A DNA stretch of 57,922 nt, the filler included, from Sphacelaria rigidula (Eukaryota): assembly GCA_964200075.2 (NCBI GenBank). It is 9 parts of 9 records of this genome, joined end to end, with 100 filler letters (N's around TTAATTAATTAA, not from the genome) between each part and the next. Parts side by side here need not be neighbours in the genome. Positions count along the whole stretch, not along the records: positions 25,789 to 32,135 come from CAXNAA020020626.1; 8 more parts are not named here. The stretch is one strand, 5' to 3'. Below are positions 8,903 through 46,287 of the stretch, in pieces. The position numbers and the translations under genes are program-made. The notes below the pieces were generated by a model. The model did no database searches. It saw only the letters and a program-made list of their open reading frames with translations, and was not told where the DNA came from. The first letter of the stretch is position 1. The number at the start of each line of letters is the position of its first letter.

Positions 8903-8990
8903 TGTTGTTGTTGTTGTTGTTGTTGTCTTCACATTAAAACCCGTTCCGATATCTGCGCAGTACTCTGTACCAGGCATCTGATGCGGACGC
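8903..8990 (-). mobile_element. 3' end of a (CAA)n-tailed non-LTR retroposon (RTE-like LINE/SINE)
   Basis: Minus strand reads ...gatatcggaacgggttttaatgtgaagac(aac)n. A near-identical end lies at 44957-45029. Confidence 0.65.
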
Positions 8991-10504
8991 CTTCCGTGGT
9001 CACAGGCTAACTACCCCAAGCTAGGGTACAAGAAAAATCTTGAAAATATATCGGGCCCAAAAACAATTCACACAGGTGCGATAAAATAGAAAAAAACAAA
9101 CACAAATCAAAAAAAAATACCAAGGAAAAAAAAAAAAAAGGAACGAAAAGGGAATACTGCTTAATTTGGGTTTTTTGGGTTTCATTTTTTCTTTTACAAG
9201 CTGAAGGCGAGCTTAAAAATTGTGACAAGCTCATGATGTGCTTGAAACGAGCAGAAAGTTGCGATACATTTTTATGCGCCTCCTCCAGCCATTGCAGCAG
9301 CTGTCTGAAAGTGCCCCCTATGGCCTATGGCGTGACTCGTCACCCGTCAACAGACAGGTTTCAATACTCCAAACTGCCATGGTTGCGGGTCTGATCCGAA
9401 AACGTTCAATGATTAGAAAAAAAAGTCATATTTTTCAATAAAAAAACAGTTTTTGAACATCGAACACCCAAAATTGTCACCCTCTCCTCGTGCTTGAAGG
9501 CTCGCCTCGTGAGGGGATACTGCCACAACGCCACAACAAGGACGCGAAGTAAGCGCATAAAGTGGGGCTTGAAATAAGGTGGCAAAGCATATTTATATTT
9601 GAAAAAAAGAAGGAGTATAGCGGAAGGGAAAAAAACGCGCATACGAAGCTAAAGCCTAACTGCCAGCCCTCTAAGTTCCGATGTCATATGCGACCATTCG
9701 GGCTGCTGGAGGCAGGGCACATTGGCCCACTCAACACGCGAGGCCAAACTGGAAGTGAACCAAACTCGAGAGCCACGATCACCAGTAGGTACTATGATTT
9801 GATTCGATTTTGATCATTTAATTGTTACACTTTAAGTAGCTCCCCAGGGGTCATGATCTAGCCGTGATCACATGATACACGTACTCAAGACCAAACAAAA
9901 CTGAATCACTCGCTGCAGAAAAAAAAAAAAAAACTAGAACAGAACAACAGAATAGCCCAAGGCGTGAAAAAAAAAAATACTGCATACCGGACAAGAAATG
10001 AGGTTCATTAGTTTGGACTGCAGGCTCGTCCTGAAGAAGGAAAGACGGGTGGAGGAACGGGGATGTACTCATTTGTTGCTTGCCTTGGTCATTTGACCGT
10101 TGACCACGCATCCCACTCGAGACGGGGGAAGGGGGAATATGATGGCAAATATATATATATATATATGACATGAGATATTTTTTTACAATGGTGCTTTTTA
10201 ACGCTTCGAACGCCGCCAGATGAACACAATGGATGGTCGAAAGCGGTCAAGTCGTTGTGAATTATGACGAAAAGCCTTCGATGATCAATTAATACGTGGA
10301 GGTCATCATCCATTGCCTTGTTCTTTGTTCATAAGGGTTGGAGTCCCCGTTCCCCCTACTACCCCAGCAACCGTGGGCATCAGACGCGCGCGTCATCAAA
10401 ACCGTGGTTTTTTCGTGTGTAAAAAAATAGTCAGTACAGCTTTCTTTGAGTTTTATTCATTTCTTGTTCATTTATTATTCATTTTTTTTTTTGTCGCACT
10501 TTGA

Positions 10505-11330: not shown

Positions 11331-11374
11331 CGAGGTCAATGGTGTTATGACTATGACAATCATGATCATGAGTA
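11331..11374 (+). mobile_element. 5'-truncated copy of the C-tract-targeting family (3' end CATGATCATGAGTA)
   Basis: cgaggtcaatggtgttatgactatgacaatcatgatcatgagta matches 25334-25377. C-rich on both sides. Confidence 0.8.
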
Positions 11375-11435
11375 CTCCTCCCTTCCTCCCCACGCCGCCG
11401 GTGCCTTTCCCAAACTGTCTCTGGTTTGTGAGCAG

Positions 11436-14960: not shown

Positions 14961-14996
14961 ATGGTCTGATGACTATGGCATGCATGATGATGAGTA
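14961..14996 (+). mobile_element. 36-nt 5'-truncated copy of the C-tract-targeting family
   Basis: atggtctgatgactatggcatgcatgatgatgagta, flanked by the imperfect duplication cccttcccccatc / ccctccccccatc. Confidence 0.8.
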
Positions 14997-16808
14997 CACC
15001 CCTCCCCCCATCGTAACATGACTTGCGGATGGGTTTTGTATGGGAAGATGAGCGAGGTCACACATCATGGCTGCAGAGGATAGTTTCATTTTGGGTGCGA
15101 GAATAATTCGATGCCTACGAAGGTCCCCAAGGTCATACTCAAAAACTGGTCCATCTTTGTTATGTAAGATCCCGTGTTTGAATATATGATAATATAGAGG
15201 ATGATATTCACGCTGACACATCGCCCGGCATATTACCCATGTTACTGTCATCTGATTCGCAAGTCCAATACAGAGCAAGACACGAGCAAGTAGTAAGCCG
15301 AACAAGGCAAGCGGGAGAATCTGGCTTGTGATATTCATGGTTCAAGTCCAATCCGCTTCGTAGCCAAACCTTCCCTGAAAAACGACCACATACAGATGCA
15401 GTCACTTTCGTGGTAACTCACGCTGAGCGTGTGCTTTTTCCTGCTTCTGTTTTCGTCGTGCCTCTCTACTACCTGAAGCGTTTTAACGCTGTAACATGCA
15501 TACGATTCCCGAGCTGCGTCGGTAGCTGGCTGAGTTACCCATTGTATATACTAAAGCACGTTCGCATCAACAAAAAGACCCTGTCATCGGAAAGATAGGC
15601 AAGACTTATCGATTCGCTTTTACTTACATTATTCTCAGACTAGACCGCGGATAAATCAGTCGTACAGTAGGTGACGAATGTAGCAGCACGGTTGGTGTGG
15701 ATGATATTCCCATCTGAATCGTTTCCGCCAGAAACAGGGTCTCTCGCAGTCGAGGAACCTTGCTTGTCCACAGAAACCGTCCCGGCAAGACGCTCGTCAT
15801 GAGGCGCAGCTTCAACAACTCATCACCAGAGAGGGATGGTATATCTCGCTACCGAGCTACACTCTTACACGGTACCCTTGGGCACACACCGCAAGGGTTG
15901 GATTTCTCGACAGTTTCGTATTTTTATTCGGGCACAGCGCTACACTAGCGCTAATGTTTCGTCCTGAACCTTTGGGGTGGGGGGATGGTGGTAATACAAC
16001 GCTTTTTCCTTAGCGTCGTTTTGCTTGGCCTAAGATTTACACGGGCGCCTCGCTCTGTGCGATTTGGGGTCCTGGTTGAACGCCTGTCTGTGTTCTAACC
16101 GGTTGGCCTCTTCTGGCTCGGAATGACCTCCGCCGTTACCTTTGAATATTTGTTCCAAGCTTCGAAATTCCGTCGTGCTATAGGGCAATATGCGATGAAT
16201 TGTTCGGCGCGCGCGCGCGCGGGGGGGGGGGGGGGGAGTGTTCAGGTTTTTTTGGATGAAACAACGCGTCTTCGGAACGNNNNNNNNNNTTTAATTTTTT
16301 CTTCCGTTTCTGAAGTCCCGGTGGTGGAGGGGGGGTAGGTGGTTTTGTTGTTGGGGGGCGGGGGGGGGGGGGGGGGGGGGGGGGGGTATTGTTGACAGTA
16401 TTTTTCGATGAAATAAGCGATCTCCTGACGTAGTAAGAATACCATAAACCATTCGTCAACATCCCGAATTCAAGCATCATGCCGATGTCTTCAGATCCTG
16501 AAGCAATGGCGGAATTCGACACACGAAAACAAACGAGCCTGTTGAGCCGAAAACCAGGAACGGTAGACCTTGCACATCTTGTTCTAGTGGATACACGCCC
16601 TACCCGTCAGTAGGAATCAGAACGTCGAAAACCTGACCGCGTGATGGAAAAATACATCAGGATTCCGCACGAGAAGTAGGGATCTATTGTAGGCCTCGTA
16701 GCAATTGTTTCATCATGTACGTGATCGTTTCAGCACCCCAACAAGTTGAGCGAGATGGGAGTATCGACCCAAACAAGGATCACTTTCGCTGATCAGCAGG
16801 CCGAGTAC

Positions 16809-18907: not shown

Positions 18908-19808
18908 CTGCATGAGTTAGAGTCATCAACATCAACATCACCAACGACACCAACAACAACAGCAACGACGACGAGAAACGCATCATCACGTAGGAAATCA
19001 ACACGCAAGAGCAAAGCCCTCCCCAGGACAGCTGCCACCCCATACCGATGGGAGAAGCACGTCGGCGATGGGCAGAATCGGTATACCGTCAACATCATAG
19101 ATGGGGCTATGGTGGGCGGTACACACTAGTTCGAGCGAGCCCGTTCAATCAACTCGTTGACAGCGGGCGAATGGATCAGTATGGGTAGCTGAAACAGTGC
19201 CTCCTCCAACATCGTATAAACGGATGCCAATTCAACCGATGNNNNNNNNNNNNNNNNNNNNNNNNNNNNNNNNNNNNNNNNNNNNTTAATTAATTAANNN
19301 NNNNNNNNNNNNNNNNNNNNNNNNNNNNNNNNNNNNNNNNNCGTGCAAGAGAGAAATGCCACTTCAACCCCATATTTTGTATGAACCCAAAAATTTAAAA
19401 TCGGCTGTTTGAAGCTGATGCATAATGTATACAGTCCGTGTTCAGGTTCTAAAATACTCTGCAGAATTGTTTTGTGTTCAGTGTAGTACCCTGTACTCCA
19501 TATGATGGGGTCACGCTTTGGGCAGTTTTTCGGAAGCTCTGCTTGTTTTTTCAAAAGTATTCTGAAAAAACAAGACAGTTTTCTGTCATAGAAATCCAAC
19601 GCCGAATCTGGAATAGCCTGAGACAACAACCAATTTGAAAATTGGAATGCACGTGAGAGAATCAAAGTTATTCCATCAAGGCACTGCGTCCGTTGTATCT
19701 TGCGCACACCGCAGTCTCACTCTGAAGGACGAGGATATTACCGTCAGCGTATCCCCCCAAACATGCTTGTTCCGAAACTTCGAAGTTTCCACGAGTTCTG
19801 CCAGGGGA

Positions 19809-20420: not shown

Positions 20421-21532
20421 CTGACAAAATCAGAGTTTGAAGAAAAACATATGGGGGTACAACGACGCGCGAGGTTTCTCTGTGAGCCCGCGTGTGTAGT
20501 GGCGTGTTGTGAAAATGGGCGGAAAGAGCACAATTACGAGCCGGTCGCACAGTCTCATACCAACACTTGTGTGTGCATAAGAGAGAGAGAGAGAGAGGGA
20601 GAGAGGGAGAGAGAGATTACGTGCATACAGAACTGCGAGGCAACCTGGAGATTCTTCTCGTCGTATCCGGCTCAACACGGCCATGCAGTTCGTCTTTTGT
20701 GCAAGTAATAATTGTTGACGCGCTACCTACAGCCCAAGTCTTCGCCTTCAGTAACCAACGTAGACATTGCCCATTTTCCCGGCTGCTTCACTTGTAGTTG
20801 TAGCTGAAGTAAACGGCAGTATGCGGATAGCAAAAAAAAACCCCGACGATGTACTTCTACTAATACCATTGAATGGATAGGTCGCGTTCTCTTTACAGAA
20901 TCTTCTTCGTCCCATATCATCAACGGGGCTATCCAACATCCCCCAACATGACACGCTACACGTGTGTGCAACGCCTTGGTGTGCGGACTGATGAATCAAG
21001 ACGGCAACGCATGTGTGCACTGCGGAGAATATGCCGCATACGAGAGGGTACAACGACGTCGCTCTCGCGGTTGTACGCCGAACTTTCTCAAGCACGTTTA
21101 GCGCAAGGCAGTTCACATAAACTCACAGACGCCCAGCAAGATACCGTCTGAAGAGAGTACCTGAACCCACAACGAAGAGAAACGCTTGAATTGAAGCCAC
21201 GATCCCCTCGCCCCCGGGGACAACCAACAGTTGACACGTCGGTCAGATCATGATTCGTCTGAAAATTACTTCTTCTCTGTATGCTGATTCGGATCATGAC
21301 GCGGATCATTTGGCCCCCCTCTTCCATGTTTGCCCCTTATAGCGCTGGACGCTGAGCTTGCCGAGTAGCGCAAAGGTTGCGCTTTGGCTTTTCTGACTCT
21401 CGCGGTCACATATTTTGTGTTTTTGGGCCAACGGACTCGAGAGTTTTCTTTGATGAGTTCTTTCAGCACATCATGATCTGTCCGACGTGTGCAACAGCTT
21501 AATAGCTCCCCCCAAAGGCGGCGTGAACTCAC

Positions 21533-21616
21533 GATGACGTGCAGATGTAGGTGATAGACGCTTTGACATCCCTGAACTCCGTCGTTCACCACCACCCGGA
21601 ATCCTTCGTCAAGCCC
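21533..21616 (-). CDS. HINT: HINT exon with the histidine triad (GLDEGFRVVVNDGVQGCQSVYHLHLHVI)
   Basis: QSVYHLHLH triad. AG/GT boundaries, phase 0. Confidence 0.95.
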
Positions 21617-22747
21617 CTGTGTTCAAAACACAAGAGAAACGCGGAGATGGCATCAATTTGACGGCAAAAAGCATAGAGTACCCGAGCGGGGCAGGGCCCC
21701 TTGATAGTTCTTACTATTTCCCTTAGTGTACGGCTCTCTCTCTTATTCATGTCATGGTCTGAGAGTAATCGAGCGGCCTGGTTGCTGTGACGGGGAAATA
21801 CTGTCTTCTTACTTCCCGGACAAATTGCCAAACGCCCGACAAGCCCGTGTCTTCCAACATCCGGAAAGCCTTACAAGTACTCGGCCGTTCCATCGTCCGG
21901 TCCTTAGGAACGATTTAACGGAGGGAACGGACGCCTACGACATACACATACACACACACACAAGAAAGAGGAATACGTCATTGCTCTCGCTTGTATCAAG
22001 CGGTCCACCTCTCCAAGACAAAATCCAAATTGGTCATGAAATGAGTAGTTTCACTTGTGCTGCATGAAAGCTTTCACTCTGGAAACCTTTCTGCGACTTC
22101 ACTCATCCTGAACACTTCAAAGGTGGTCAGAGTATGGAACGTACCGTGGACTACGCTGGCTTTTCAAGGGACTTGGAATGCAGAGTCCTTCAGAGTACGC
22201 GGGGTGTCAACTGCCGAAAACACCAATATTTCAGGGGAGCAAGGGTATCGATTGTCGAAGATGCTCGTCATCACAGGGTACCAACGGCAGCCAGCACACT
22301 CAGTACTCCAGCGTAACCTAGGTATCAAAACCGCCAAAATACCCAACCTCACCACATATCCTACCGCCCCCGCCCCCGCCCCCCAACACATTTAGAATAT
22401 TTCACACGACAGACGACACAACTCATATGACTCATTTTCGTATAACTCCGCTGCTGAGATATACGGTATAACCCAGCGGTGCCTAATTCCACTGGCCGAG
22501 TTATACTGTACATGGTCGAGTTGTACTGTATAGCTCAGCTATACCATTTGTCACTGGATGGGTTATACCGCACAACTGAGCCAACTTGTGACTTGTCCGA
22601 CGTCTTGAATATTTGGACGAAACGTTCATGTCCAACGCTATGAACCCCTCGCAATCAACGCTGCACCGTAAAATCACCGCTCCTCCTCATTGTCTAGGAG
22701 CCCCATCCCGACGATGCCATAAACACAGCAATTACGCCCATGCTCAC

Positions 22748-23552: not shown

Positions 23553-23953
23553 CAAAACTCAACCATACCAGAAAGCGTGCGTGCGGCCGAGCTTGGTAAC
23601 ACCTCCGACGTTTGAACGAGCGAGCACTGAATCGAAAACAAGCTCACGAGAAGAAGCCGTGTTTGCCTGCCGCGCTCCCAAGATGCAGCAACGCGAAGGC
23701 CACTGCATCTAACCTTCGATCGGCACGGCTACTACATACCAAATATACCAGTCAGTGCAAACACGAGCACACGACAAGAATAATTGTTGGGCAGTGATGA
23801 CCTGATCTCCATCGAAACACATCCTGCTCTCCCTCGACATTTTCGCGATTTCCGTTCGCAGGCGGGATCACCTTCACCACACACGGATGCTCCCGTGCCG
23901 TACCGCATCTCACCGGATTGGACTTAACGCCGACAAGAAAGTCTCCAACTCAC

Positions 23954-24404
23954 CTGAGGATTAATATCCTTGAACGCAAGGCAGAGGTCGTCTTCGTGGA
24001 CGATGTCCGCGGGGATCTCCTTGGATACGATCTTGTCAAAGATCGTTACGGTGTCGGCGTTTATTTCCTGAGCCGCTGCTGCTCTGGCCGCGGCTTCCAC
24101 TTCGCCCCCGCCTCCGCCGTCCGACATGTGTCTGACTAGTCGCGCAATACGGCGCCTAGCGCTTGAAGGGTTGCTCCTCGGGGTGAAACTGCGGCGGTCG
24201 AAGCTTCGGCTAGTGGGAGCTTGCGTTGTTGTCGCCGCTACTGGTGCGGCGTGGAAGCTTCTGGCGGTAGCACGAGTTATCGAGCGGCCTAGCGTGGATG
24301 CTCTTCCTGAGGATGAGGCGGGGTTGAAGGATAAGGAGAGCGTCCTCGAGGATGTTCCTGCTGCTGCCACTGCTGCTCGGACGAAGCTTGCGGTGATAGC
24401 CGCT
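23954..24404 (-). CDS. HINT: HINT exon: R/S/A/T-rich transit-peptide-like extension followed by MSDG...[31 protein letters not shown] (AUG at 24127)
   Basis: TIFDKI..EIPA..V.EDD.CLAF.DINPQ motif. gtgagt donor, pyrimidine tract plus CAG acceptor at 24407-24405. The 5' boundary is less certain than the core. Confidence 0.88.
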
Positions 24405-25074
24405 CTGACAGTCGATGGGGAAAGAAGGGAGACAAAACAGGTGAGCGGACAAACGGCACGTGTCTTACTGGTACTCCGGAGTACCAGTATATGCGAGCTG
24501 GTTTTTCTACAGTAGGAAAATAAGAATTCGAACCCCGACAGGGAAATAACTACAGACTCGAGCAAAAGGTACCTGCGAATCAATTTCCAACACTGGCGCA
24601 CGCATAAGCTGAAGGATGATGCCCGCAAGGCTCATCAGGTCTAAACCGGCGACGAATTGTGCACGTCGAACTTGAATTCTAGCCGGGCCTAGCCAATTGA
24701 GGAGCCCGGCCTGAATTTTTCACCACATGGCAGCGTTTGAACTGTGTTTCCGCCGAAACAACAGCAGTCTTCTTTTCTTAGCTCCGAGAGCTCGGTATCC
24801 ACTTTCTTTTGCTTGGGGACTTTTCCGTTAGGATCCCCCCGATTTCATTTTCCTACGTGAATTTCTTTTCCCCACGGGGTTGGCATCGACTGGTGATGAC
24901 GCTGCTAAAAATGTCTCTCACTGCGTAAGCTAGGCAGCCAGGTTACCGACTTTTTTCTGCGCGCTTGCGTTTTTTTCGCGGCAGCCATGATGGTGGTCGA
25001 ACTGAATCATAATGTGCGGGGTGGGAGAACCCTAGTTCTGCGCAGAGGGGATGATCATTCTGCGTAGCGTTGGA

Positions 25075-25377
25075 ATGGTGAAACACCCGGTGAGGCAGTG
25101 TGGAACCTGCGGCTGTCTCTGAAAGTGGTGATCGCAAAAAATGAAGCAACTCATTGGACGCTGTCAACCATTCGCAAGACAACCAGTACGCTTCGGGTCG
25201 AATAATCCGAGCAGGATGCAGCTCGCATTTCATGCGACTCGCCGAACTCATCACGGCGCTTCGCGCTTGGCGATAGATTGCCAAACTGCTTCGGCGAAAA
25301 CCCGGCGTGCTCCGTCCCGGCTTTGTAGGGATGCGAGGTCAATGGTGATATGACTATGGCATGCAAGATCATGAGTA
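25075..25377 (+). mobile_element. Longest copy of the C-tract-targeting family (5' end not defined)
   Basis: 25075-25190 matches 57808-57922. 25234-25336 matches 32925-33027 and, in part, 45446-45490. The 3' end matches five other loci. Confidence 0.8.
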
Positions 25378-25859
25378 CACCCCCTCCCGGTATCCCTGCT
25401 CCGATATTTGTGAAACTCTGCTGCCTCTCGACAAATCATCGGCAGGTGGGCAGGTGAAATTGATCCTCAAATCGCTTACGGTAGGCGTGGTTGGCTTGTG
25501 GCTCCCCATTATTTTTAGACGGTAAGGAGAAATTGACTTCCAAATTGTTTTCAGCAGGCGTGGTGGCCGACCCCTCCCTCTCTTTCGGCAGAGCGTAACC
25601 TCTCCCCCCCCCCCCCCCCCCCCCCCCTCCCATCGTCTCTTCTGGGCGGCCCGGGCGGTGTGGGGGCTCGGCCAGGACCTCGGGTCGTNNNNNNNNNNNN
25701 NNNNNNNNNNNNNNNNNNNNNNNNNNNNNNNNTTAATTAATTAANNNNNNNNNNNNNNNNNNNNNNNNNNNNNNNNNNNNNNNNNNNNCAGTCAACGGTC
25801 ATCATCCTGCTGATCACTACATAGCACATCATGTAGGCGATATTTCGTCACAAAGCCCA

Positions 25860-26095
25860 CCATACCCTTACCCGACAGTTGTGTGAGTTCTGTACATCAT
25901 GTTTACCCGTGCCCGGAGCGCGCATATGCTCTTGAAGGAGAACCCGATTGTCTGTAAGCCTCCCATAACATACCCGACAAGTTCTGCAAGTTCTGTAAGA
26001 CTTTTATCCAGTACAGGTACCCGACAGTTCTGTGAGCTCTGTAAGCCTCCCATACCCCTACCCGGGGTAAGGGTATACCGTTGTAAATATACCTG
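25860..26095. mobile_element. Fragment of the MITE family with TACCCGACAGTTCTGTGAG sub-repeats
   Basis: Same sub-repeats as 26761-27379 and 32345-32683. Confidence 0.7.
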
Positions 26096-26401
26096 ATTGC
26101 AGGTACAGCACAGGTATACACGTTAGAGAGGTATGGATATGGGCTCAATCCAAACACAACCTCATGACCTGGACATGTACCTCCCATCGAGCAACCCACC
26201 CTACTCCTTCATTCAACACTGCACACCAACAAAAAATCAATGTTGGAAAGTTCTTCAGCTTATAATTTGACGGGATACGAGGTACTGCTGAGTGGAAACA
26301 CGAAACATGAGCAGCACTGCAGACCGTCTGAATGAATCACCCCCAAACTCGAGTGGTTGCTCGAGCGGGGGCGGTTCACCTGCGCCACCAGGGGATCAAG
26401 T

Positions 26402-26677
26402 AGCAAGACGCACGCCATCGACGCTGATGGTGGTTGTGTCGTGGTCATCGAACCCCAGGCCGTTATCGACATGCACAGCAGAGAATATTAGCTGCTACCG
26501 GAACTCATCAAGGCCGTCGATGATTTTGTCGTGCCGAAGGACTTTCATAGAGCGGGCAGCCGTGAATGCTCCTTCATGTACACCGTGGGGATGTACGTGA
26601 AGCCGATAGATGTTGACGATCTCGTGCACATGTACTACTGCGAGTGTTCGTGTAATATTTCTCTATCAGCCCCGTAA
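26402..26677 (+). pseudogene. Decayed ORF (..LLPELIKAVDDFVVPKDF..SFMYTVGMYVKP..HMYYC..), possibly the N-terminal zinc-finger region of a DNA transposase
   Basis: Coding-like codon bias in a frame broken by TAG near 26488. The family assignment is a weak recollection only. Confidence 0.3.
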
Positions 26678-26760
26678 AGCTGTTCAAAGTTTTCGGTAAC
26701 GGTCATCTATAGTTTGCCATGGTAGTGACGTAGGTCCCACCACAGGGGTGATGATAATAC

Positions 26761-27379
26761 CAAGGTCGTCTTTAGTAGAGTACGGTTTTTCTATATACCC
26801 GGGGTATTTTCCCGGGTATTTGCCGTACCTTACAGTTCTTTGACTTCTGTAAAACTTTTATACCGGTACCCGACAGTCCTGTGACTTCTGTAAGACGTTC
26901 ATACCGGTATCCGACAGTTGTATAATCTCTCCAAGACTTTCATACCCTTACCCGATAGTTCTGTGAGTTATGTAAGCCTCCTGTACCGTTATCGGGGGGC
27001 GCCGGTATGCTCTTGATAAGATGCCCGATTACGGGTACGGTTATCTGCGCGACCTCCATACCCTGCCCGACAGTTTCTGTGAGTTCTGTAAGCCCACCGT
27101 ACCCTTACCCGACGGTTCTGTGAGTTCTGTACATCATGTTTACCCGTACCCGGAGCGCGGGAGTGCTCTTAAAAAAGTCCCCGATTGCCGGTACGGTTTT
27201 TCTGTAAGCCGCCCATACCGTACCCGACAAGTTCTGCAATTTCTGACATATTTTAAAACCTGTACCTGGCAGTTTTTAATTTCTGTGAGACTTTCATACC
27301 GGTACCCTATATTTCTTCAAGTTCTGCAGGAGTCACATACCCTACAGAACATACCCGCACCCTACAGGACACAACCTTG
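26761..27379. mobile_element. hAT-like MITE with CAAGGT... TIRs and internal tandem sub-repeats
   Basis: caaggtcgtctttagtagagtac ... ccctacaggacacaaccttg, with many tacc(c/g)tacccgacagttctgtga units. No clear TSD. Confidence 0.7.
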
Positions 27380-28015
27380 CATGATTCTGCAAAGCACAAT
27401 TGCTTAATATAGCAGCATCTGACTTCTTGGCTCATGTGTGCGATCATGGTTGTGATTTCGATCGGAATCAATGGCGCCTACATTTGTGCTTTTCAGAGCT
27501 TGGCATGAGTAATCGACTCCGACGCTCCCAATTTTAAACCGACGAGACAGCTGACGTATTGCATCCATACATCAATTTATCTCATGTCCTCCGGACAGGT
27601 GGTGAAGCAACTGTATAGCTCGGGCCTCCATTCCGCCCAACTCGTGCCACATCCGTTGTTGAGAGTGGATCTCGACGGACAGACTCCGAATGAGTCAGCC
27701 GGATGGGGCGGGGTAGGAGCGGCGACGCCGCGGACGACGGCAACTGCAGCACGCGGAGGTTTCGACGGCAGAGGTTTCACAGGGCCGACACCACGGACAT
27801 CTCTTGCGGCGGTGACAGACGGACGGGGGAGCGGGGCTGCGTCGGTGCCGACGACGGTGCCAAGGGTGGGTGTTGGCACCCGCGCGGCGGTTCGGAAGAC
27901 TCCACCATCGCATATTGCAGTACTGACAGGCAGCGGGGAAACAACGGCGGCAGGGGACCTAGATCTGCGGTGCGGTGCTTCCCCAGCCTTCTAGTCTTGA
28001 CTACCACCCCCACCT

Positions 28016-28196
28016 AGTCACCAGCCACTGCTTCAAGTGCTTCTTTAACAACCTCTCGGAGTGGATGATGAAGTGGACTGTGGACATCTCACCCTAACCC
28101 ATCCCGGGTCCAGCTACGCTGTGGATACTCTGATCAGGCCCACTGCCATTACGCCACCACAGCAGGTTGAGGTGTACACATGCATGATCATGAGTA
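28016..28196 (+). mobile_element. Insertion between 11-bp TSDs: inverted copy of the downstream flank plus the last ~17 nt of the C-tract-targeting family
   Basis: CACCCCCACCT at 28005-28015 and 28197-28207. 28016-28179 is the reverse complement of ~28191-28354 with about 7 differences. Confidence 0.85.
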
Positions 28197-28207
28197 CACC
28201 CCCACCT

Positions 28208-29727
28208 GCTGTGGTGGCGTAATGGCAGTGGGCCTGATCAGAGTATCCACAGCGCAGCTGGACCCGGGATGGGTTAGGGTGAGATGTCCACAGTCCACTT
28301 CATATCCACTCCGAGAGGTTGTTAAAGAAGCACTTGAAGAAGTGGCTGGTGGCTTCGATCGATACTGATCAGTAGATTATTGTGTTGCTAGCAATGTCCT
28401 CCGGGTATATTACACCGCAGGGCTCCGACGCAGTTCAAGTCACTGTCAAACGATTGTGAGCGGTGGCCCCCGGGACATCCTCGAGGAGAGGGTGTACAGC
28501 TCCGCCGAGAATCTGACGGATGGGAGTGAGAGCGCTTGGCCGCCCGCCGGACAGTATACGTGGCTGACGCCATTTATGAAGGTAGCATTATTCGTGTTGA
28601 CCTACCTTTTGGCTGGATGCGACTTCTTACCATATGTATTTCGTGCTGAAGGCCCTGCGTACGCCAAATCTGTTTACAGCACCAATACTCACGGAATAGG
28701 ACGGCATCCTGAGAGTGGAGATCGACGAGAGCGTGAAGCTGCCGGCCGCCATATTCTTTTCCAGGCACGAAAACGCTTCTGCGCAAATCGCCACGCCGGG
28801 GCATCTCTTCGCCACGGGGGGGTGGGACTTGGGATCGTATGTCAACAAGATCCGCCTGTGTACCACCACAGTACATGATATGCCTTCCCGGTGCTGCTCA
28901 GACTTGGACGCCTGTCGGAAGCACGTAAGTAAGTCTGACGCGGTATTCGAACACCGGGGAGGGAGGTTTCAGAAGATGCCCACGGTGGACTTCAACGGCC
29001 GCGCTTGGGTTGTTGAACCACAGAAGAAGACTCATCACAAGCGGGACATAAAACTGGCGAGCAGAGAGGCAGAGGTGCTCACGCGGGACAACATCGTTAT
29101 TTATTTATCAAGCCACACGTATGTTGATGGGTCCGGGAACGTGCGAACCCTGAGGTGCTCATGTAACCCGGCATAGGCGCCACAAAGAGACCACCCCTGC
29201 AAAAAATGTAGGTGTCCGGGGAAACTGCACGCTGAGCTGCGGTTGCCAGGGTAGCTGCTTGCTACCCCCCGCCATCCTCCGGGGTAACCGAGGCGACTTC
29301 CAGTGGTGATGCTGACAGTGGAAATGGCGGTGCACGTGAACGGTCTATTTCTGCCAGGGGCGGATCTGCGGCGAACCGTGGGAGGCGCGGATCCACAGCG
29401 AAGCGCGGGAGGGGCGGATCCACGGCGAACCGTGGAAGGGTCAAGGCGAGTGGAGCAACCAACGCGTCGAGGATAGCAGTCAGCGTGAGGCTCGGCGATG
29501 AGCCGCGCCGGTTTGTCGACACGAGTGTGGTGGGAGAGGGATGGGGTCTAGGAATATCCCCGAATAATCGTTATTGTCGCGACGGTGGACATGAAGACTA
29601 CAACAGCGTCGGGTCAAGAAGTGCAGCCGGTATCTGGATTGGATATTCCGATGTGGAGTGCAGCGGGTCGGAGACAGATGACCCGGCAACGGAGGCAGAT
29701 AATAACTATGACGATTTCATGTTTTGA
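28208..29727 (+). pseudogene. Decayed C-terminal part of an AcademX-like transposon protein (XPG/FEN1-like nuclease + Cys-rich finger + acidic tail)
   Basis: YLLAGCDFLP, then DACRKHVSKS...NGRAW, then RCSC..PCKKCRC../NCTLSCGCQGSC. Intronless, with stops and frameshifts and an in-frame 27-bp x3 repeat at ~29357-29439. Confidence 0.55.
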
Positions 29728-31854
29728 TTGCGCCTGATGGACAAATTGTAAATATTCTTTCGGTTTGTAAAGTGGACTATTGCATTTGCGTTATTCAAGA
29801 TTGTCTTCTCCAGGAGGTGGTCACAGAGCTCGCCTCGTGTACATAGCAATGGTGCTCTTTGCATGGTGCAGTGCGCCCTTTGGGGCACAAGTGTGTTGAG
29901 GTTGGTGTGCTGACGCCCTTGGGCGAATCTCCGGTCGTGCGTGAGTGCAGGTATTAATGAACACCGGGCGAGTTTATATCACAGATGTCCATAGGTCCAA
30001 CTCTGAACCAAGCCACGATCTCCAAGTTTGTCTTTTGTTAATCCTACATGCGTCCACCATTTCATTGTCATCGGCGCTAGTCTGTGGCTGGAATGAACGG
30101 TGGTCTGACATCGAGCGAACCGCCGGCAATCGTTGCTTTGACGAGTTGTGGTGAAGGTGGGGGGAGGGAAGTCCGAACACGTTCTTCAATGCTTCCTCTT
30201 CAACAAGCTGACCCACTCTGCAGCGCAGCGGATGGTCGATGTGACCACCTTACCTCCAAATCGTACCACAGTTCCCCTTCGGCAGTACCGCGCCCTTTTG
30301 ATGCGGAGGAGTAACGGTATCGCAGACGGTGGAAGCTATTGGCGCAGTACAAATGGCAACATTACTTGAGAAGCTCTAATCTGAGGCGAGGCTCGTTTCT
30401 TATTCTTATCCACGAGCCACGTATATTTCTTGGAGCCATTTTCTTACTTTCCGCACACGTGCAGTCAATGATGAAGTTCTTATAGGTCAATTTATTATTT
30501 TTCCCGGACTCGTGAAAAAATGATGGAATTCTTGAAAACAAATGTCTTTCTTTGCTTTTCAAGGTTAGGTAATATATTAAATATTGTACGAAAATTGTAG
30601 TACTGTACAAGAGTACGTGCTGACTATTGTACCGTATTCGGCGGCGGGGGGGTAAAGAGGGGTGGGGCGTCGTTGCGTCGAGGGGCTCATGGGTCTGCCA
30701 CCAGTTTCTTATTCCCCAAGGCTGCGATGTCGATGACAGACTTCTTATTCGCCGAGCCTCTTGAATCTCTTGATATTTTATCCTTATTTTCGCCTTGATC
30801 TGAGCAAAAATTGTCATCATCACTTCTTGGAACCTGAAAAATCTGAGCCTCGATTTCTCAACTGGTGACTTCTGGAGCAGCTCGGAACTCCCGTCCTTGC
30901 ATTATTTTCGCCAGTATAGCTCACAGTTCACGCTTGTTGCAATCTAAAACCAGTTACCATGCGCTGCATGGCCGTATTCTTCGCGACAGCTTGGGGGGTG
31001 GTCTGGGGGGGGGGGGCTATCGACGCATCATTCGGGCGCCGATGCCCGCGATTTGAAAGTACCTGAACGCGGCGCAATTGCCGCCTGTTCATTTTGGATA
31101 CCCCCGACGGTTTGAAGCGCTTTTACACCGTATTCCACATGTTTCAACACCCCGCACCTAGATGGCAATATCTCGACACACACTGCGGGAACAGAGACAA
31201 AGCAAATTGCTTTGTGTAGCCAAAACGCATATCTATCAACGGGTCTGGGTTCCAGCTGCGCAGGTCCCTGCTGTTGAATAAAAGTTCGAGGTGAACCGAA
31301 GATCATCTACCACATATTTTGCGCTATACCGACAGTAGGTTGATGCGATCTTGGGCTTGAACGATGGCCAATAGATAGTTTTGCCTGCCTGTAGAGTTTC
31401 GGCTTCCATGTATTCGCGCAGCGTCAGTGATCTGCGATCGCGTGTCTGAGCGGCGTGTTGGAAAATGACTTTTTCAATTGTACAGATAGTAACAACTTTT
31501 CATAGGGCTATCCGTCGCTGGTTTGTGCGCTGTACTCGGTATAATTGAGTCAAACTGCGTTGAGAACATAGCTTCAGACATATATTACAGCTATGTATCA
31601 ATATCACCACCGTTTTGTGCTCTGTTCATATCTTTGACCCTGTGGAGTCCTCATTTTGGGGGGGTGGTGAAGAACGTGACACTAAACTGGGCGCAACACT
31701 GCTCATGCCCTCTTCTCACCTGTGCTATAGCTGCCGCTGTACTGTGGTGTGTTGAGACCTTGCGAAGACGGTTCGGTCTCCCCTGGGATTGCCTGAACTG
31801 TTGTACTGTTGTTGTGCTCCGCTGTGTACAAAGTAATTGTGGTTGGCACGCACA

Positions 31855-31886
31855 AGGGTTAGGGTTAGGGTTAGGGTTGGGGTTAG
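31855..31886 (+). repeat. Interstitial telomeric tract (AGGGTT)4-GGGGTTAG
   Basis: Read directly. It lies about 250 bp from the contig end but is not terminal. Confidence 0.85.
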
Positions 31887-32344
31887 TGTTTCACATAAAA
31901 TAAAATGAAAGCATACCAGGATGAATCTAGGGCGGGCTGGTGCATGATGGTCTCCATTTCGGATGAATACCCCCGCCCGACGAGGCACCCCTCTGCCCCC
32001 TCATTCCTTCCTGCTCCGTCGTCACAAGCGCTCCACCTCTCGGAGAAGTGTCAATGTAGTAGTTCTCCATTGAACAGCAAATTGTGAGAATTGAGGTTTA
32101 ACTCTGAATTGAGGCTCAAGTGGGCAACCCAACTTNNNNNNNNNNNNNNNNNNNNNNNNNNNNNNNNNNNNNNNNNNNNTTAATTAATTAANNNNNNNNN
32201 NNNNNNNNNNNNNNNNNNNNNNNNNNNNNNNNNNNCCTCACCGCCCCCGGGGGGGGGACGGGCGCGCCGGGCGCCGCCCGCGCGGCGTCGGGCACGCCGC
32301 GCGAAGGGGGGGGGGGGGGGGGGGGGGGGGTGTAGAAACAAATA

Positions 32345-32683: not shown

Positions 32684-32894
32684 GTAGTAAAGTGCATGGC
32701 GTCGTTTTGGCATTTAAATACGCACAGGGCGTTATTTTTTCGCACGAGCTACACAGGGTCTTGACCAATACCCTCCCTACCCCAACGAGACTCTCATTTA
32801 TTGATTGGGTGATTCGACCCCTTCTTCTTTTCAGTTGTCTCCTTCGCGCCTAACTCAATAAACCCTATCCTGTAAGGGGAGAAGTGGAGGGGTG

Positions 32895-33027
32895 CACCCA
32901 TGATCTTGCATGCTGTAGTCATGGGCGACTCGCCGAACACATCACAACGCTTCGCGCTAGGTGATTGATTACGAGCCTGGTCCGGCGAAAACCCGGCGTG
33001 CTCCGTCTCGGCTTCATAGGAATGCGA
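32895..33027 (-). mobile_element. Copy of the C-tract-targeting family with an inverted 5' segment
   Basis: The 3' end is on the minus strand (32895-32923). The upstream segment (32925-33027) is in the opposite orientation relative to the 25234-25377 copy. Confidence 0.8.
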
Positions 33028-35626
33028 CGAAAGGGGCGAGGGCGGGCGGGCGGGCGGGGGTCTGAGATGAAATTTCAAACACGTCATGAGTAAATAATGA
33101 CACCAGCAGGCTTTTTTCGTTAGGTGTTTTACCTCCGGGGGGGGGGGGGGGGGGGGGTTCAGAATTGTTGGTTAAGTGGAAGATACAACGCCTGCATGGA
33201 CAGTCCGGCACTCGGTAGGCGATTACCACACGTGTATAGGTCGTACCCTCTCCTGGTGATGTGTTGCACATCACTACAGGTCGTAGCTGCTCTGCAATCG
33301 CGTATGCATCTCCGCTGCTGTAAACGTCACCGTTGACGCTGCTGAGCGGGATGCAGAGGCGTACAGGACACAGCCATTTCGCTTGCTATTATGCGTTGCA
33401 CAAACACAAGCTACGGTAGACCCCAACGGAAACTTTAACTCGGGCTGCTCGATTATGTCGGGCTACGAGCTCGGCCGGCCTACTACAACCTAAAAAACTT
33501 TCCACCACCAAAACTTATCTCAAAAACGGCGGCGACATCGACATATCGCCAGGCAAACATGTCCCTGTGATGGGGAGATCGCCATTCGTGTGCTTCGAGA
33601 ACTCTAAATGTGCTCACGAGTGTTGATGAAAAAATCCATATTTTGGACATGTGTCATTTCACATTTTTCACCACTTTTGCCGAGTTTTCTCTGGCAGCAA
33701 GGCATTTTATGCCGCGCTTTCTTTAGCAGTGCACGAAGAAGGCGCAGCGGTACATTACCGTTCAGGTTTGGGTGCCATCTGATACCTGTGGCGCGTGTTT
33801 TGGCCACACGAAAGTCGCCCAAACTGGCTCTTTCTCGCGGGGTGTCGATCCCGAACCACAAAAGCCTTTTCAAGATCGTGGAAAACTTCAAACAGGAACC
33901 CGAACCACAAAAGCATGTTCATGCCGGGGTATTTTTCCACCCTGATTCTTTTTGCGTTCTCGTTGATTTGGGAGCACGAAGACAGCGGTTATGTAGCGAA
34001 TATCACGAGAACATGAGAGAAAAGCAGTTGAAAACAGTTGAACATTGCCTTGGCCTTAGTCAGCAGCAAACACAAGTCGAATGATCTGGGGTCCCTTAAT
34101 ATTTAGTTTTGACGTGAAGCCTTCAACACCGTCATATCTGCGTAATGTGGGTCCCAGTCATGCGAACGCAACAGTCCACAAAAGCGTGTTCAAGATCACT
34201 CGAGAATGTGTAGATTGGTATTAGAGGAAGGTGCCACATTCACAGCTGCAGCAGGGGAAGTCGCTGATGGCCCGGTCTGCATTGATACGGTGGGTAACCA
34301 CGGTGCGTGGGATTATATTGTTTCAACACCCTGCTGTCTGATGACCAGTATGATGGGTACAGTGACAGTTGAGCACGGAGGCTGCGACGGATCCCGCCGG
34401 CCGCATCACCAATCTTCGCCCAGTCATAGATAAGCGCTCGAAGAAAACTGGCAAACAAGTATCGTTTATGGTTCGCTATATATGTGAGGGTTTGGAGCTG
34501 AACATTTCCGCTTGAAAAATCTCGACGGTAGAAGGTTACGCTCCTGTCGCGCGACCAGTGGGTATTGCCGCGGACCCTTGCCAGCGTACCTGGCACTGGG
34601 GGCGACATCCCGGTGCAGACAGTCTCATCACTGCCGGGACGGCTATACAAACAGGCCAGCAGCCGGGATGGCCGTTGCACTGGTGTTGCTCTAGCGTTAT
34701 CAACTTGGAGTACAGCCGCACAGGCTTTGCACGTCAATATTTCGGTGATTGCCTCACATCCACTTCGGCCATGTGCTGTGGATTATTTCACGATCTCACC
34801 GCCTAATATGTATGGAAATGTTTTACACCCTGGACAAGAGCTTTCTACAGTCAGCATACAAGTGAAAAGAATGTACTGTGCACAGTATGGAAGATGCTGC
34901 CTACTGCAACGTGCGCAATACGCGTGGTGAGAACTGCGCACACATCACTTCGAGACAGGGTAGAAATCTCCACGCGGTATGAGTTGTTACAGCCCGCTTG
35001 CGCGCCGTAGCGGCTGCGTTACCATACAGCTCCGCTCAAGATACAGGGGGCAATTATAGCGGCAGAGGCGGCTTATTACTCCTGCTTGCGCCACACAGTG
35101 TAAATACACGCTTGGCTGCAACACCGACCGCTGTACTAGATGTGGCGGAGCGAGGGGTAGTACACCACGTACACACAGACAGCAAGCAGTATCATACATA
35201 TATACTGTATACAAGTGTGATTTGAAACCCGTGCGCGCCGGATGGGGCAGGCATGTAGAGAACCCTCCATAAGTTCGCCGTGTACTACCGGCACGCGACC
35301 TTTTTTCGTTAGCAATCACTTGCGATGTGTGCTGTGACGAGTCTCGTGCGTGGTGGTCCTTTTTACACCTCCGCACACCGCCCGTGAAGCGAGCTCTCCA
35401 TGCCGGAAGTACCCACCCCTCTTCCCGTGGTGATCTTCACTCTTGGTCTGAGACAAATGAAACTGCGGAATATGACAGTATCTACTGGAAGATACATATT
35501 CTCCCACACAAATGCCTCCATTATATTAAAGAGGAATAACACTGATATATTTTCGACTTGCGTCACCCCCGGGAGGCCAGTACCAACCTCCCGAAGGGGA
35601 ACCTTATGCATAAAAATAATATGCTC

Positions 35627-35747
35627 AATAGATGCAATAGACAAAAATGTACTGGGTACAGGATAGGCCTATTGCAACTTTTGTCGACCGATACAGCTGC
35701 GCTAGGCCTATACTTCACCCAGTACATTTTTGTCTATGGCATCTATT
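35627..35747. repeat. 121-bp hairpin (31-bp arms with 1 mismatch)
   Basis: aatagatgcaatagacaaaaatgtactgggt / acccagtacatttttgtctatggcatctatt. Confidence 0.85.
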
Positions 35748-36300
35748 TACCATATATTGTCGTTGTCCATGGATGTGAAAAAGTCATACAAATATTTCGA
35801 GGAATAAAATACCTCTAGGCGGGAATCGAATCGGTGTTGTACACTCTAATGCTGACAGTCTGACCGTGAAACATGCCGCTGATATGATCACGCGAAAATG
35901 ACGATGCGTGGCGCAATTGTTCGAATCTCGCGGTGAAATTCGGACGCCAGAAAAGAACATACAGGCCTGCGCTGTCCCTGGAATCAACTGCTGTCTTATT
36001 GTTTTCTTCTCTTCACTTACTTTGACCCTGAGACCGCGAGGGTAGCCCATCTGGACCATACATCCTCTTGATTCATTAATGGCTTCTCAAGTGAAATTGA
36101 TACCGATTCAACAAATAATCTACTCTCGCCGTCCAAGTGTCAGAAGATAAGCTGAAGACAGCCCAAAATTTCGCAACCCCCGGAGTTGGGGCAAAGCACA
36201 AAGCCTCTTTACAGAGGATGCTGCGCTCTCGTAAGCCGACAGCATCTTGTTCAGTCTTATGATTAAAAATTGCGCCTGCGTATGCCGCACCACAAAACAG

Positions 36301-36777: not shown

Positions 36778-37371
36778 GTGAGACGTGATGTGTGTCGTGT
36801 ATGTGGTGTGTCGTGTGTGTGTGATATGTTGTGACATGATGTAATGTGCTTGCTGAGTACTGTATGTGGTGTGCCCTCAAGAAGGAACGGAAGAGGTGGT
36901 CTTTCTTGGGTTTTGGGAGGGGGCAGCGGGGGCGGGAGGAAATGATGATATTTTATTTTGCACAAAGACATGCGAGATATCTTTCAGTAGTAGTTCTGTG
37001 CACAACGTCGATGCGATATTTCCCCACACCCGCTCACGTCGTGTCCTCGCACAAACTTCACCGTGACTCCCCTCCCCCCCCCCCCACCTGCTAGAGGGGA
37101 AATGGGGAACGTAAACGAAGATAGCTTTAAATCGTTTGATGCAATAGACAGTAGCGAGAAAACGATGGCTATACTAGGGAATAGATGTTGGCCAGAGACG
37201 GCGAAACAGGACGGGGGATAAGATATATAAAGGGTTTTTGTGTGCTGTACGGAAGGAACGTAATGAGCGCCGGACAGTTGGAGGTGGCTCTAATAGGAGT
37301 AGGAACGGTGCTCCGTCTCGAAAGGGATGCGTGGTGAATGGTCAAATGACTGAGGCAAATAACAAATAAGT

Positions 37372-37402
<31 letters not shown>

Positions 37403-45928: not shown

Positions 45929-45997
45929 GGCTTTGAAGGGATGCGAGGCCAATGGTTTCATGTCTCATGACTACGGAATGCAAGATCATGATGAGTA
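45929..45997 (+). mobile_element. 5'-truncated copy of the C-tract-targeting family
   Basis: ggctttgaagggatgcgaggccaatgg...catgatgagta, with catcccccc on both sides. Confidence 0.8.
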
Positions 45998-46287
45998 CAC
46001 CCCATCCCCCCTCCTCCCCAGCTTGACCAATTCAACCCTCGACCTGAACAATTTCGGGAACAGCTTCTCATATTAACTCGGGACGACTTTCCTAGCGTAT
46101 CTATCATTATGAATCATACGGTTTCGAAAACCTTTTTTTTTTAGCAGAGACACTCATGATCCGGAGACGCCCGACACGTTGTTTTTTATCGATAATATGA
46201 GATATTCAAACAGAGAATTGTTAAGCAGATAAACTTCACCATTTCAAAAGTAAGAACTGTCGAATATGAACATACGGATTCGCATAC

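Follow-up and report, generated by a model that had tools for sequence, protein, structure and literature searches.

A hairpin of copied host flank at a truncated retroposon tail in Sphacelaria rigidula: a probable cDNA snap-back during insertion

Snap-back 5' junctions have been described for transgene insertion by R2 proteins (PRINT; Zhang et al. 2024, PMC11371274; PMC11331408), and L1 insertions carrying an inverted duplication of adjacent genomic DNA, in which a self-annealed hairpin of 2 bp served as primer, have been reported in a preprint (bioRxiv 10.1101/2024.12.14.628481). In tumours, L1-mediated fold-back inversions were described by Rodriguez-Martin et al. (2020, PMC7058536). The mechanism is not new; it has been published both for insertions by R2 proteins and for L1 in human cells. 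Records of snap-back and inverted duplication during target-primed reverse transcription (TPRT) have so far come from engineered insertions and from tumour or cell-culture genomes, and a non-exhaustive search of the literature found no natural, fixed example of a snap-back insertion. Here we analyse a hairpin in Sphacelaria rigidula (GCA_964200075.2), within a stretch of 57,922 nucleotides composed of joined genome parts and referred to below as the window. We consider it probable that the hairpin is the result of one old insertion of a non-LTR-type retroposon by TPRT that went wrong through snap-back of the cDNA. If so, the locus is such an accident fixed in a wild genome, with both junctions, the microhomology and the duplication still readable.

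Geometry of the hairpin

The hairpin is a palindrome of 339 bp at 28016-28354, in which about 147-150 nt of host flank are copied in reverse and whose apex falls on 17-20 nt from the 3' tail of a retroposon. A repeat search of the window returned its arms as two inverted pairs, 28016-28066 with 28304-28354 (96%) and 28068-28182 with 28189-28303 (97%), the spacer being 6 nt. Self-BLAST of 28016-28354 against its own inverse gave 95.0% identity over 341 columns (E 5e-149). Folded as RNA, 28005-28366 has a predicted energy of -336 kcal/mol (z -34.9), and none of 100 shuffles folded equally well. From left to right the parts follow in the order target-site duplication (TSD), inverted flank, inverted copy of the TSD, inverted tail end, loop, tail, second TSD and flank (Table 1). 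Taken together, tail end, 11-mer and flank (28189-28354) match 28016-28182 in reverse complement with 7 differences, and this is the feature by which PMC11331408 recognises a snap-back 5' junction. The two CATG words at 28179-28182 and 28189-28192 pair with each other, and the tail contains a perfect 10-nt palindrome, CATGATCATG, at 28183-28192.

Every part of the hairpin lies at the position that a preliminary description of this locus had assigned to it. Its count of about seven arm differences became exactly 7 in the arm alignment, namely 6 substitutions and 1 indel (28018, 28030, 28067 (1-nt indel), 28116, 28168, 28170 and 28178). The claim that the apex lies on the CATG-rich palindrome of the element was borne out by a CATG/CATG stem with a 6-nt loop, and the claimed 11-bp direct repeat around the added material is exact, with 2 occurrences in the window. 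The inverted copy of the flank is present as described, but it extends past the flank into the inverted 11-mer and 8 nt of the tail. Differences between the arms affect 3 of the 19 apex-proximal positions versus 4 of 148 elsewhere (Fisher p = 0.033). Since the two direct 11-mers agree with each other, the inverted 11-mer is the altered copy. No microhomology was found at the left junction, 28015/28016.

We also considered a pre-existing palindrome that was later struck by the tail element. This candidate was rejected because 8 nt of the tail recur in inverted form within the left arm, so that the duplication must have arisen with the tail or after it.

Table 1. Positions of the hairpin parts and of the tail-family copies in the window.
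Feature	Positions	Strand	Description	Evidence
Left 11-mer	28005..28015	+	CACCCCCACCT, read as upstream TSD; adjoins outer edge of left arm	repeat search
Left arm, outer part	28016..28163	-	inverse of downstream flank 28208-28354; 3 substitutions, 1 extra base at 28067	self-BLAST, arm alignment
Degenerate inverted 11-mer	28164..28174	-	aggttgaggtg; mismatches 28168 and 28170	arm alignment
Inverted retroposon tail end	28175..28182	-	mirrors 28189-28196 at 7/8	arm alignment, folding
Apex loop	28183..28188	.	catgat, 6 nt	repeat search and predicted fold
5'-truncated retroposon 3' tail piece (copy H)	28180..28199	+	ATGCATGATCATGAGTA plus CAC common to the 11-mer; flanking repeat 11 nt, exact	exact motif, nhmmer, alignment to other copies
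Right 11-mer	28197..28207	+	read as downstream TSD; overlaps element/target microhomology CAC(CCC)	repeat search
Right arm	28208..28354	+	original downstream flank	contiguous with sequence past 28354 in paralogues
Copy A	24870..25383	+	longest in window; body and tail contiguous; 5' end may be near 24800; flanking repeat 10 nt, 1 mismatch	
Copy B	32889..33027	-	32-34-nt tail after inverted body segment; ~15 nt missing at junction; no usable flanking repeat	
Copy C	45929..46003	+	~75 nt; direct repeat CATCCCCCC of 9-10 nt on both sides (10 nt, 1 mismatch; 9 exact)	
Copy E	11331..11378	+	~46 nt, within C-rich tract; flanking repeat weak	
Copy F	14961..15002	+	~37 nt; flanking direct repeat 14 nt, 1 mismatch	
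Copy G	10060..10114	-	diverged subfamily; flanking repeat 10 nt, 1 mismatch	
Copy I	37323..37378	+	diverged subfamily; poly-C run after; no usable flanking repeat	

The tail family and the 11-nt duplication

The tail family has 8 copies in the window, which share a constant 3' end, ATGAGTAC(AC), and vary in 5' truncation (~20 to at least 500 nt). Its motif CATGATCATGAGTACAC, allowing up to 3 mismatches, was found 6 times in the window versus 0.17 expected, and none of 100 shuffles reached 6. An nhmmer profile built from 6 of the 8 copies yielded G and I as new matches; it also matched the tail at the hairpin apex (28179-28202, E 3.6e-6), a copy that is itself part of the profile. None of the copies carries poly-A, and C-rich sequence follows every one. 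The flanking repeats are short and C-rich. Because the C-rich stretch behind the tail is repeated upstream of F, C and G without the tail bases, it belongs to the target. The 106 ORFs of 100 aa or more that we scanned in the window (25 + 81; 15 of 121 ORFs were omitted for touching N runs) gave no Pfam match to reverse transcriptase, endonuclease, integrase or transposase, and the window may hold no full-length family member. These features fit a non-LTR-type retroposon that uses TPRT, the class being read from structure, and copy B has a twin-priming-like 5' inversion. A 21-nt pattern for the tail had no match in public metagenome, genome and viral contigs.

Only one of the 8 family copies, the one at the hairpin, has upstream sequence that is the inverse of its downstream sequence (score 139 versus at most 13 for shuffles). 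In this copy the added material, 28016-28196, is bracketed exactly by the direct 11-mer. An exact CACCCCCACCT occurs at no other site on either strand of the 57.9-kb window, and its chance per position from composition is 2.4e-7. The likely TSDs of the family are 9-14 nt long and C-rich, and the 11-mer fits both the length and the composition. Of the 6 long palindromes in the window, this one has an 11-nt direct repeat between its outer left end and the right side of its apex, versus at most 6 nt in the others.

The upstream 11-mer is preceded by TTGACTAC, a stretch similar to the tail end ATGAGTAC, and the left 11-mer may for this reason derive from the element and not from the target. We therefore weighed a snap-back that made no TSD. 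Here the 11-mer would come from the 3' end of the element RNA, the upstream GACTAC-CACCCCCACCT would be a template-jump copy and the target would read tagtcttg/ctgtgg. Read by eye, the left context TTGACTACCACCCCCACCT equals the right context ATGAGTACACCCCCACCT at 16 of 19 positions, 11-mer included, and extra-template junctions have been reported for the R2 protein (PMC11371274 / PMC11331408). A single public contig from run X6 points the same way: in it, 27996 is followed by 'CT' and then by 28207, so that 'CT' replaces 27997-28206, the left arm and the tail are skipped, and the 11-mer and its neighbours are lacking. This contig is a paralogue with other differences too, and its shorter side measures 35 letters. 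However, the C-rich sequence repeated upstream of the truncated copies F, C and G without tail bases is target, a target that is not C-rich would be unlike that of all other window copies, and 3 differences in the 8 leftmost bases are many compared with the 4% between the arms. We regard an origin without TSD as improbable. The preliminary description had predicted an empty site of the form gactac-CACCCCCACCT-gctgtgg. This prediction did not hold for the X6 contig, the sole empty-site-like contig, which lacks the 11-mer and thereby leaves a pre-insertion site with CACCCCCACCT unconfirmed; the predicted 24-mer, searched with up to 3 mismatches, had no match in the window.

The surrounding repeat in public contigs

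Among the matches listed, two runs supply at least 3 contigs that cross the outer right end of the hairpin at 28354 (X2 record 11 spans 28244-28633; X2 record 12 and X5 record 20 span 28304-28608). Since contigs cross this end and the X6 contig skips the left arm, it is the right arm that stands in its original context, as ordinary repeat sequence, and what was added is the left arm together with the tail. At 28096 and 28100 every mapped contig differs from the window (in X1, for example, 10 contigs with a depth of 834.7 of 834.7). The fact that the two arms agree with each other at these positions against all contigs indicates that this locus, rather than another paralogue, was the template of the left arm. 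Among the 32 pieces listed (31,712 further), none spans the apex or 28015/28016.

Palindromic chimeras are a common artefact, and the absence of the window's letters at 28096 and 28100 from all mapped contigs would also be in keeping with a chimera of assembly or amplification, formed from a fold-back read or from a de Bruijn hairpin that arises where a word is palindromic. The preliminary description had disfavoured such a chimera on account of the arm differences. Against a chimera stand the 7 differences found, 6 of which are substitutions, and the second junction, 28015/28016, which shares no word that could mislead an assembler yet falls just where an exact 11-nt repeat ends. A chimeric origin is very unlikely in our judgement.

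Diverged multicopy contigs lie on both sides of the hairpin and one contig links the two sides, so that the hairpin probably lies within a larger dispersed repeat. This repeat spans about 27287-30290. The preliminary description had placed the hairpin on the 5' margin of a transposon relic; this could not be upheld, since the contigs of both sides are linked and the repeat has no recognisable transposon protein domain. The label of transposon relic was likewise dropped for the repeat as a whole, as neither Pfam nor structure matches support it. The ORF at 28369-28878 has 29 protein relatives, 10 of which were scanned with no meaningful Pfam family among them: 9 gave no Pfam match or one below the cut-off, and the tenth (P0016), which is repetitive, gave scattered Pfam matches with no matched stretch. 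No solved structure matched this ORF. A protein-guided search of metagenome contigs for paralogues of the neighbouring ORF returned 122 pattern matches, none of which was confirmed.

Long inverted arms with a short loop are also the mark of foldback elements and MITEs, and we asked how well the hairpin would pass for a multicopy mobile unit with long terminal inverted repeats. The genome does carry foldback-like repeats, since five further long palindromes lie in the window (2499-2920, 7550-7970, 8356-8748, 12123-12339 and 35619-35755), and the arms are covered by many contigs. The outer ends of the hairpin, however, show no flanking duplication, the longest common word being 3 nt; contigs run past the right outer edge to 28608-28633; the apex holds a piece of an unrelated family with a dispersal of its own; and self-BLAST detected the arms nowhere else in the window. 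A mobile unit of this kind is thus extremely improbable.

In the bin 28121-28331 the summed contig depth lies above that of its neighbours; such depth cannot rank the parts and may reflect the high-copy tail. Contigs show an extra C behind 28303, which could polarise the indel or stem from left-arm contigs placed on the right arm. In runs X6-X9, whose RNA origin is a guess, 0.05-0.07 of the sampled words were present, as contigs that are mute on strand, level and small RNAs. No Rfam match was obtained at gathering thresholds in the whole window, which therefore contains no known ribozyme or miRNA family.

Order of events and comparison with known systems

The left arm contains not only the inverted flank but also the inverted 11-mer and tail end, so its template was one continuous strand running through flank, TSD and cDNA. 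Before integration ends, the bottom strand with its attached cDNA alone unites flank, TSD and tail, and this points to a fold-back of that end. Top-strand (twin) priming on flank DNA was rejected, because no continuous template of tail, TSD and flank exists in that sense before integration and because 28015/28355 shows no microhomology.

In the reading that we favour, the bottom strand of the C-rich target CACCCCCACCT would have been nicked, and its 3' end would have primed cDNA synthesis on the element RNA. At about 20 nt, the 3' end of the cDNA (...CATG-3') would have folded onto the CATG lying 6 nt behind. The folded end would then have been extended on its own strand by a polymerase that could be either the reverse transcriptase of the element or a host repair polymerase, and this synthesis would have copied the cDNA bases made first, the 11 nt of the target and ~147 nt of host DNA downstream. 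Finally, the elongated strand would have been joined to the upstream target end, and second-strand synthesis would have opened the hairpin into a duplex. We infer this order of events and the priming by CATG, and the join at the TSD edge suggests that the snap-back took place within the insertion itself. The minimum free energy structure of the postulated cDNA end is exactly a 4-bp CATG/CATG stem with a 6-nt loop. The predicted energy of this hairpin is a weak -1.1 kcal/mol, reached by 156 of 200 shuffles, and the first base past the proposed primer (28178/28193) is a mismatch. The arms have diverged by ~4% since the event, which must therefore be old. The preliminary description had already put forward a cDNA snap-back through CATG/CATG pairing. 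Its geometry and the TPRT hallmarks fit, but the mechanism it presented was already in print.

The same parts could have been assembled in two events. A plain, short tail insertion would have come first, and a break inside it would later have been repaired through CATG fold-back priming by host polymerases and rejoined upstream. Repair in which resected DNA folds back and primes at short inverted repeats is known and is discussed in bioRxiv 10.1101/2024.12.14.628481, and the tail offers the perfect palindrome CATGATCATG for it. If the fold-back had followed insertion, though, the element sequence 5' of the apex would have to have been lost precisely to the TSD edge, where the left junction lies exactly at the end of the 11-mer. 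That coincidence is superfluous in a one-step model, and 28015/28016 has no microhomology that could account for it. Two separate events are unlikely.

A single snap-back during TPRT suffices to make a near-perfect hairpin of 340 nt out of ordinary host DNA. Inverted duplications are a proposed raw material of new small-RNA genes in the plant miRNA literature. Were such events recurrent in the high-copy tail family, inverted duplications would have a concrete origin that can be counted. A stronger version holds that the CATG-CATG-N2-CATG tail self-primes early-terminated cDNAs, and that the family would thus repeatedly make long hairpins from arbitrary host flanks, inside insertions that are normal in other respects, and supply hairpin-RNA or siRNA loci. 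The preliminary description had likewise seen the family as a generator of hairpins, which a single folded-back flank among 8 window copies does not support. We consider the stronger version improbable; if true, it would be a retroposon-driven route to small-RNA genes that begin as inverted duplications. As a single case, found at one of 8 copies in the window, the hairpin is a tidy natural illustration.

In PRINT, as here, reverse-complemented sequence lies upstream of a 5'-truncated insert. The PRINT insertions are de novo events at an rDNA target, made by bird R2 proteins in cultured human cells, whereas the hairpin belongs to an old fixed copy of an unclassified family with C-rich targets. 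Unlike those insertions, the hairpin copy reaches ~147 nt into the host flank and keeps an 11-nt duplication. The L1 insertions share with our locus a TSD-like overlap, inverted neighbouring genomic sequence and a small self-annealed hairpin as primer. Both of the L1 inverted-duplication examples lie at the reciprocal (upstream) end and are ascribed to resection and host synthesis. At our locus, by contrast, the cDNA-bearing end of primary reverse transcription would have folded, the CATG repeat of the element itself supplies the microhomology, and the host lies outside the animals. The tumour fold-backs likewise place a retroposon piece at the junction of host DNA duplicated head to head, but they are chromosome-scale events (isochromosome, breakage-fusion-bridge) that bridge sister chromatids, whereas this is a local hairpin of 340 bp in an otherwise intact locus.

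In L1 twin priming, a single TSD encloses inverted material followed by a direct 3' piece, and copy B shows the same structure. Twin priming inverts element sequence copied from RNA, however, whereas the hairpin inverts host flank and TSD, which is impossible from RNA. The hairpin also differs from MITEs, in that its outer ends carry no duplication, its right arm continues into the larger repeat and its apex comes from another family.

Architecture of the hairpin

A repeat search and self-BLAST of the window delineated a palindrome of 339 bp at 28016-28354, in which the repeat search paired 28016-28066 with 28304-28354 and 28068-28182 with 28189-28303 around a 6-nt spacer. Against its own inverse the palindrome was 95.0% identical over 341 columns (self-BLAST), and alignment of the arms placed exactly 7 differences, at 28018, 28030, 28067 (an indel), 28116, 28168, 28170 and 28178. 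The 11-mer CACCCCCACCT occurs at 28005-28015 and 28197-28207 and at no other site in the window on either strand. The RNA of the region is predicted to fold at -336 kcal/mol (z -34.9). By these measures the hairpin reported in the preliminary description is real. Its reading of the left arm as inverted downstream flank was correct for the flank copy but incomplete, since the arm also holds an inverted 11-mer with 2 mismatches (28164-28174, arm alignment) and, at 28175-28182, mirrors the final 8 nt of the tail piece (7/8 match), the fragment of a retroposon family's 3' end at the apex. Only catgat (28183-28188) is left as unpaired apex loop. An older palindrome into which the element inserted afterwards is ruled out, since the left arm mirrors the tail itself. 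A chimera is very unlikely: the arms differ, mainly by substitutions, and there are two junctions, the second without a shared word yet at a repeat edge. Just past the right arm and the end of the fold-back copy lies a perfect 8-nt palindrome, TCGATCGA (28355-28362); that it stopped the polymerase is speculation.

Self-BLAST found six long palindromes in the window, and a direct repeat between outer left end and right side of the apex was present only in this one (11 nt); all 15 other comparisons gave at most 6 nt. No convincing duplication across both outer ends was seen in any of the six, this one included. The other five have apexes unrelated to the tail family, and neither their outer ends nor their apexes show a clear duplication (at most 6 nt). 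Within one of them, 7813-7956 also matches 40800-40944 in inverted orientation, so at least one palindrome is a dispersed foldback-type repeat. That the hairpin itself is a foldback MITE is extremely improbable: the outer duplication is absent, a fragment of a different family occupies the apex, and the right outer edge is bridged by at least three contigs of public sequencing runs (X2 record 11, 28244-28633; X2 record 12 and X5 record 20, 28304-28608), so that the right arm belongs to a larger repeat unit and is no terminus.

Features of the window discussed in the text
Feature	Position	Strand	Length	Remark
Tail piece of the hairpin			about 20 nt	shortest 5'-truncated copy
Copy F	14961-15002		37 nt	5'-truncated
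Copy E	11331-11378		about 46 nt	5'-truncated
Copy G	10060-10114	-	60 nt	profile match, diverged
Copy C	45929-46003		75 nt	5'-truncated
Copy A	24870-25383		at least 500 nt	longest listed
Copy I	37323-37378	+		profile match, diverged
Copy B	32889-33027	- (tail)		32-34-nt tail plus inverted element-body piece
Other long palindromes	2499-2920, 7550-7970, 8356-8748, 12123-12339, 35619-35755			arms 69-83% identical
Exon-like fragments: protein kinase, HIT domain, TCP-1/cpn60 chaperonin	18592-19125, 21266-21622, 23924-24631, 48177-48503	-		Pfam
ORF directly after hairpin	28369-28878	+		member of dispersed repeat around hairpin

The tail element family

With up to 3 mismatches the apex motif occurs 6 times in the window against 0.17 expected, a count reached in 0 of 100 shuffles. 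A family profile built from these 6 copies and run over the window added two diverged ones, bringing the total to 8 within 58 kb. Every copy has the 3' end ...ATGAGTAC(AC) with a C-rich stretch behind it, and the 5' truncation points vary, leaving between about 20 nt and at least 500 nt of element. Copies F, C, G and A and the hairpin's tail piece lie between direct repeats of 9-14 nt, which are short, C-rich and without a shuffle control. In copy B, flanked by C/G-rich simple sequence, the inverted body piece is the equivalent of 25234-25336, with about 15 nt absent at the join; the signature, a 5' inversion, is the same as in L1 twin priming. The constant 3' end, 5' truncation, flanking repeats and inverted copy B are hallmarks of target-primed reverse transcription (TPRT). 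Scanning 106 window ORFs gave 0 matches to an RT or endonuclease, so the element class rests on structure. Copy I is followed, shortly before a 10-N gap, by a poly-C stretch of 26 bases or more (37375-37437), which indicates that the C-rich target or tail of this family can reach great length. The upstream side is the inverse of the downstream flank in 1 of the 8 copies, the hairpin (score 139; the others 8-11, within the shuffle range). The suggestion that the family repeatedly generates hairpins feeding small-RNA loci, resting on that one copy, is quite doubtful.

Relatives in public runs and genomic setting

Nine public runs, one labelled 'algae metagenome', contain part of 25800-32100 (best share 0.23-0.40 of sampled words). 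When contigs of X1, X2, X5 and X6 were aligned at 85% likeness, 8,755-9,833 aligned per DNA run, mostly 85-95% alike, which marks the whole stretch as dispersed repeats. Neither the apex nor the left junction (28015/28016) is crossed by any of the pieces listed. At 28096 and 28100 every aligned contig differs from the window while the two arms agree; this indicates that the left arm was copied from its own locus, and also that these runs do not confirm the exact locus. A single X6 contig (depth 316.9, shorter side 35 letters) reads 27996-'CT'-28207, skipping left arm and tail. It reveals a relative in which the left flank adjoins the start of the right arm, and supports the orientation of the right arm as the original one. 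The predicted empty site, joining 28015 to 28208 with the 11-mer kept once, was not borne out, since this contig lacks 27997-28206 and hence the 11-mer. Two readings follow: a 17-18-nt indel in that paralogue, or an 11-mer that is not target. The latter reading, which assigns the 11-mer to another short copy of the element's 3' end made by a template jump, would fit this contig and the resemblance of TTGACTAC-11-mer to ATGAGTAC-11-mer (16/19 positions), but the C-rich sequence after the tail in copies F, C and G is clearly duplicated target, and we regard it as quite unlikely.

The window is eukaryotic and intron-bearing (GC about 49%); the HIT domain lies in two pieces, indicating introns, and the surroundings of the repeats are genic. 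For the ORF directly after the hairpin, a 1.84-billion-protein library yielded 29 protein relatives (E down to 2e-23, conserved core about residues 26-92), and there was no solved-structure match. A Pfam scan of 10 relatives gave no meaningful family: 9 had no match or one below cut-off, and the repetitive relative P0016 had scattered matches with no matched stretch. The block 25853-27343 is a high-copy repeat, satellite-like or dispersed, whose internal repetition includes a 41-nt tandem unit at 26825-26976. Contigs of the public runs fall on it in very large numbers, and many contig joints skip or step back inside it. At 31855-31890 lies (AGGGTT)x6, an interstitial, telomere-like repeat of the TTAGGG type. 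Paired 44-N blocks with an exact 6447-nt period from 6348-6447 look like masking, not biology, and 10-N runs at 16280-16289, 37438-37447 and 51102-51111 look like scaffold gaps.

Probable snap-back mechanism and known events

In the left arm, flank, 11-mer and tail end follow one another without interruption, all inverted. Its template would be the nicked bottom strand extended by cDNA, the sole pre-integration molecule holding flank, target and tail together. From the snapped-back cDNA 3' end a complementary strand, still tethered via the 6-nt loop, would be made by the element's RT or by a host polymerase on a resected TPRT end. Synthesis of the second strand, starting at the upstream target end (28015), would then give the observed order of TSD, inverted flank, inverted TSD, inverted tail end, loop, tail, TSD and flank. 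In the minimum-energy fold of the postulated cDNA end (reverse complement of 28179-28207), the terminal CATG pairs with exactly the CATG 6 nt behind; this fold is weak (-1.1 kcal/mol, equalled in 156 of 200 shuffles), and the pairing is microhomology, not a stable hairpin. Fold-back through CATG/CATG pairing, as first proposed, is probable, fitting the continuous left arm, the loop and this fold. The join at 28015/28016 coincides exactly with the end of the upstream repeat, as a one-step TPRT accident explains with no extra assumptions; for a later, independent break-repair event, separate from the insertion, it would be coincidence, and such an event is unlikely. The structure is real, and we consider it probable that it arose by a TPRT snap-back accident, which would make it an old case, from nature, of a type of event already described.

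Substitutions separate the arms at 6 of 166 aligned positions, so the event is old and an empty allele in the species unlikely. Differences cluster near the apex (3 in 19 positions of the left arm vs 4 among the remaining 148; Fisher p = 0.033). Since both direct 11-mers agree and the base corresponding to 28193 is A in the family, these three are all left-arm changes; low accuracy of synthesis immediately past a 4-bp primer could account for them, as could later selection against a perfect palindrome centre.

The snap-back mechanism is already published and is not new here. Keyword searches of the open-access literature, which cannot show absence, found no naturally occurring, fixed case outside animal genomes. 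Zhang et al. 2024 define a 'snap-back' class of 5' junctions in R2-protein-mediated insertion (PMC11371274), a definition repeated in PMC11331408, and tumour-scale L1 fold-back inversions have been described (PMC7058536). An L1 preprint (10.1101/2024.12.14.628481) reports insertions that combine TSD-like overlap with an inverted duplication of adjacent genomic DNA primed from a 2-bp self-annealed hairpin; in its examples the inverted duplication lies on the reciprocal end.
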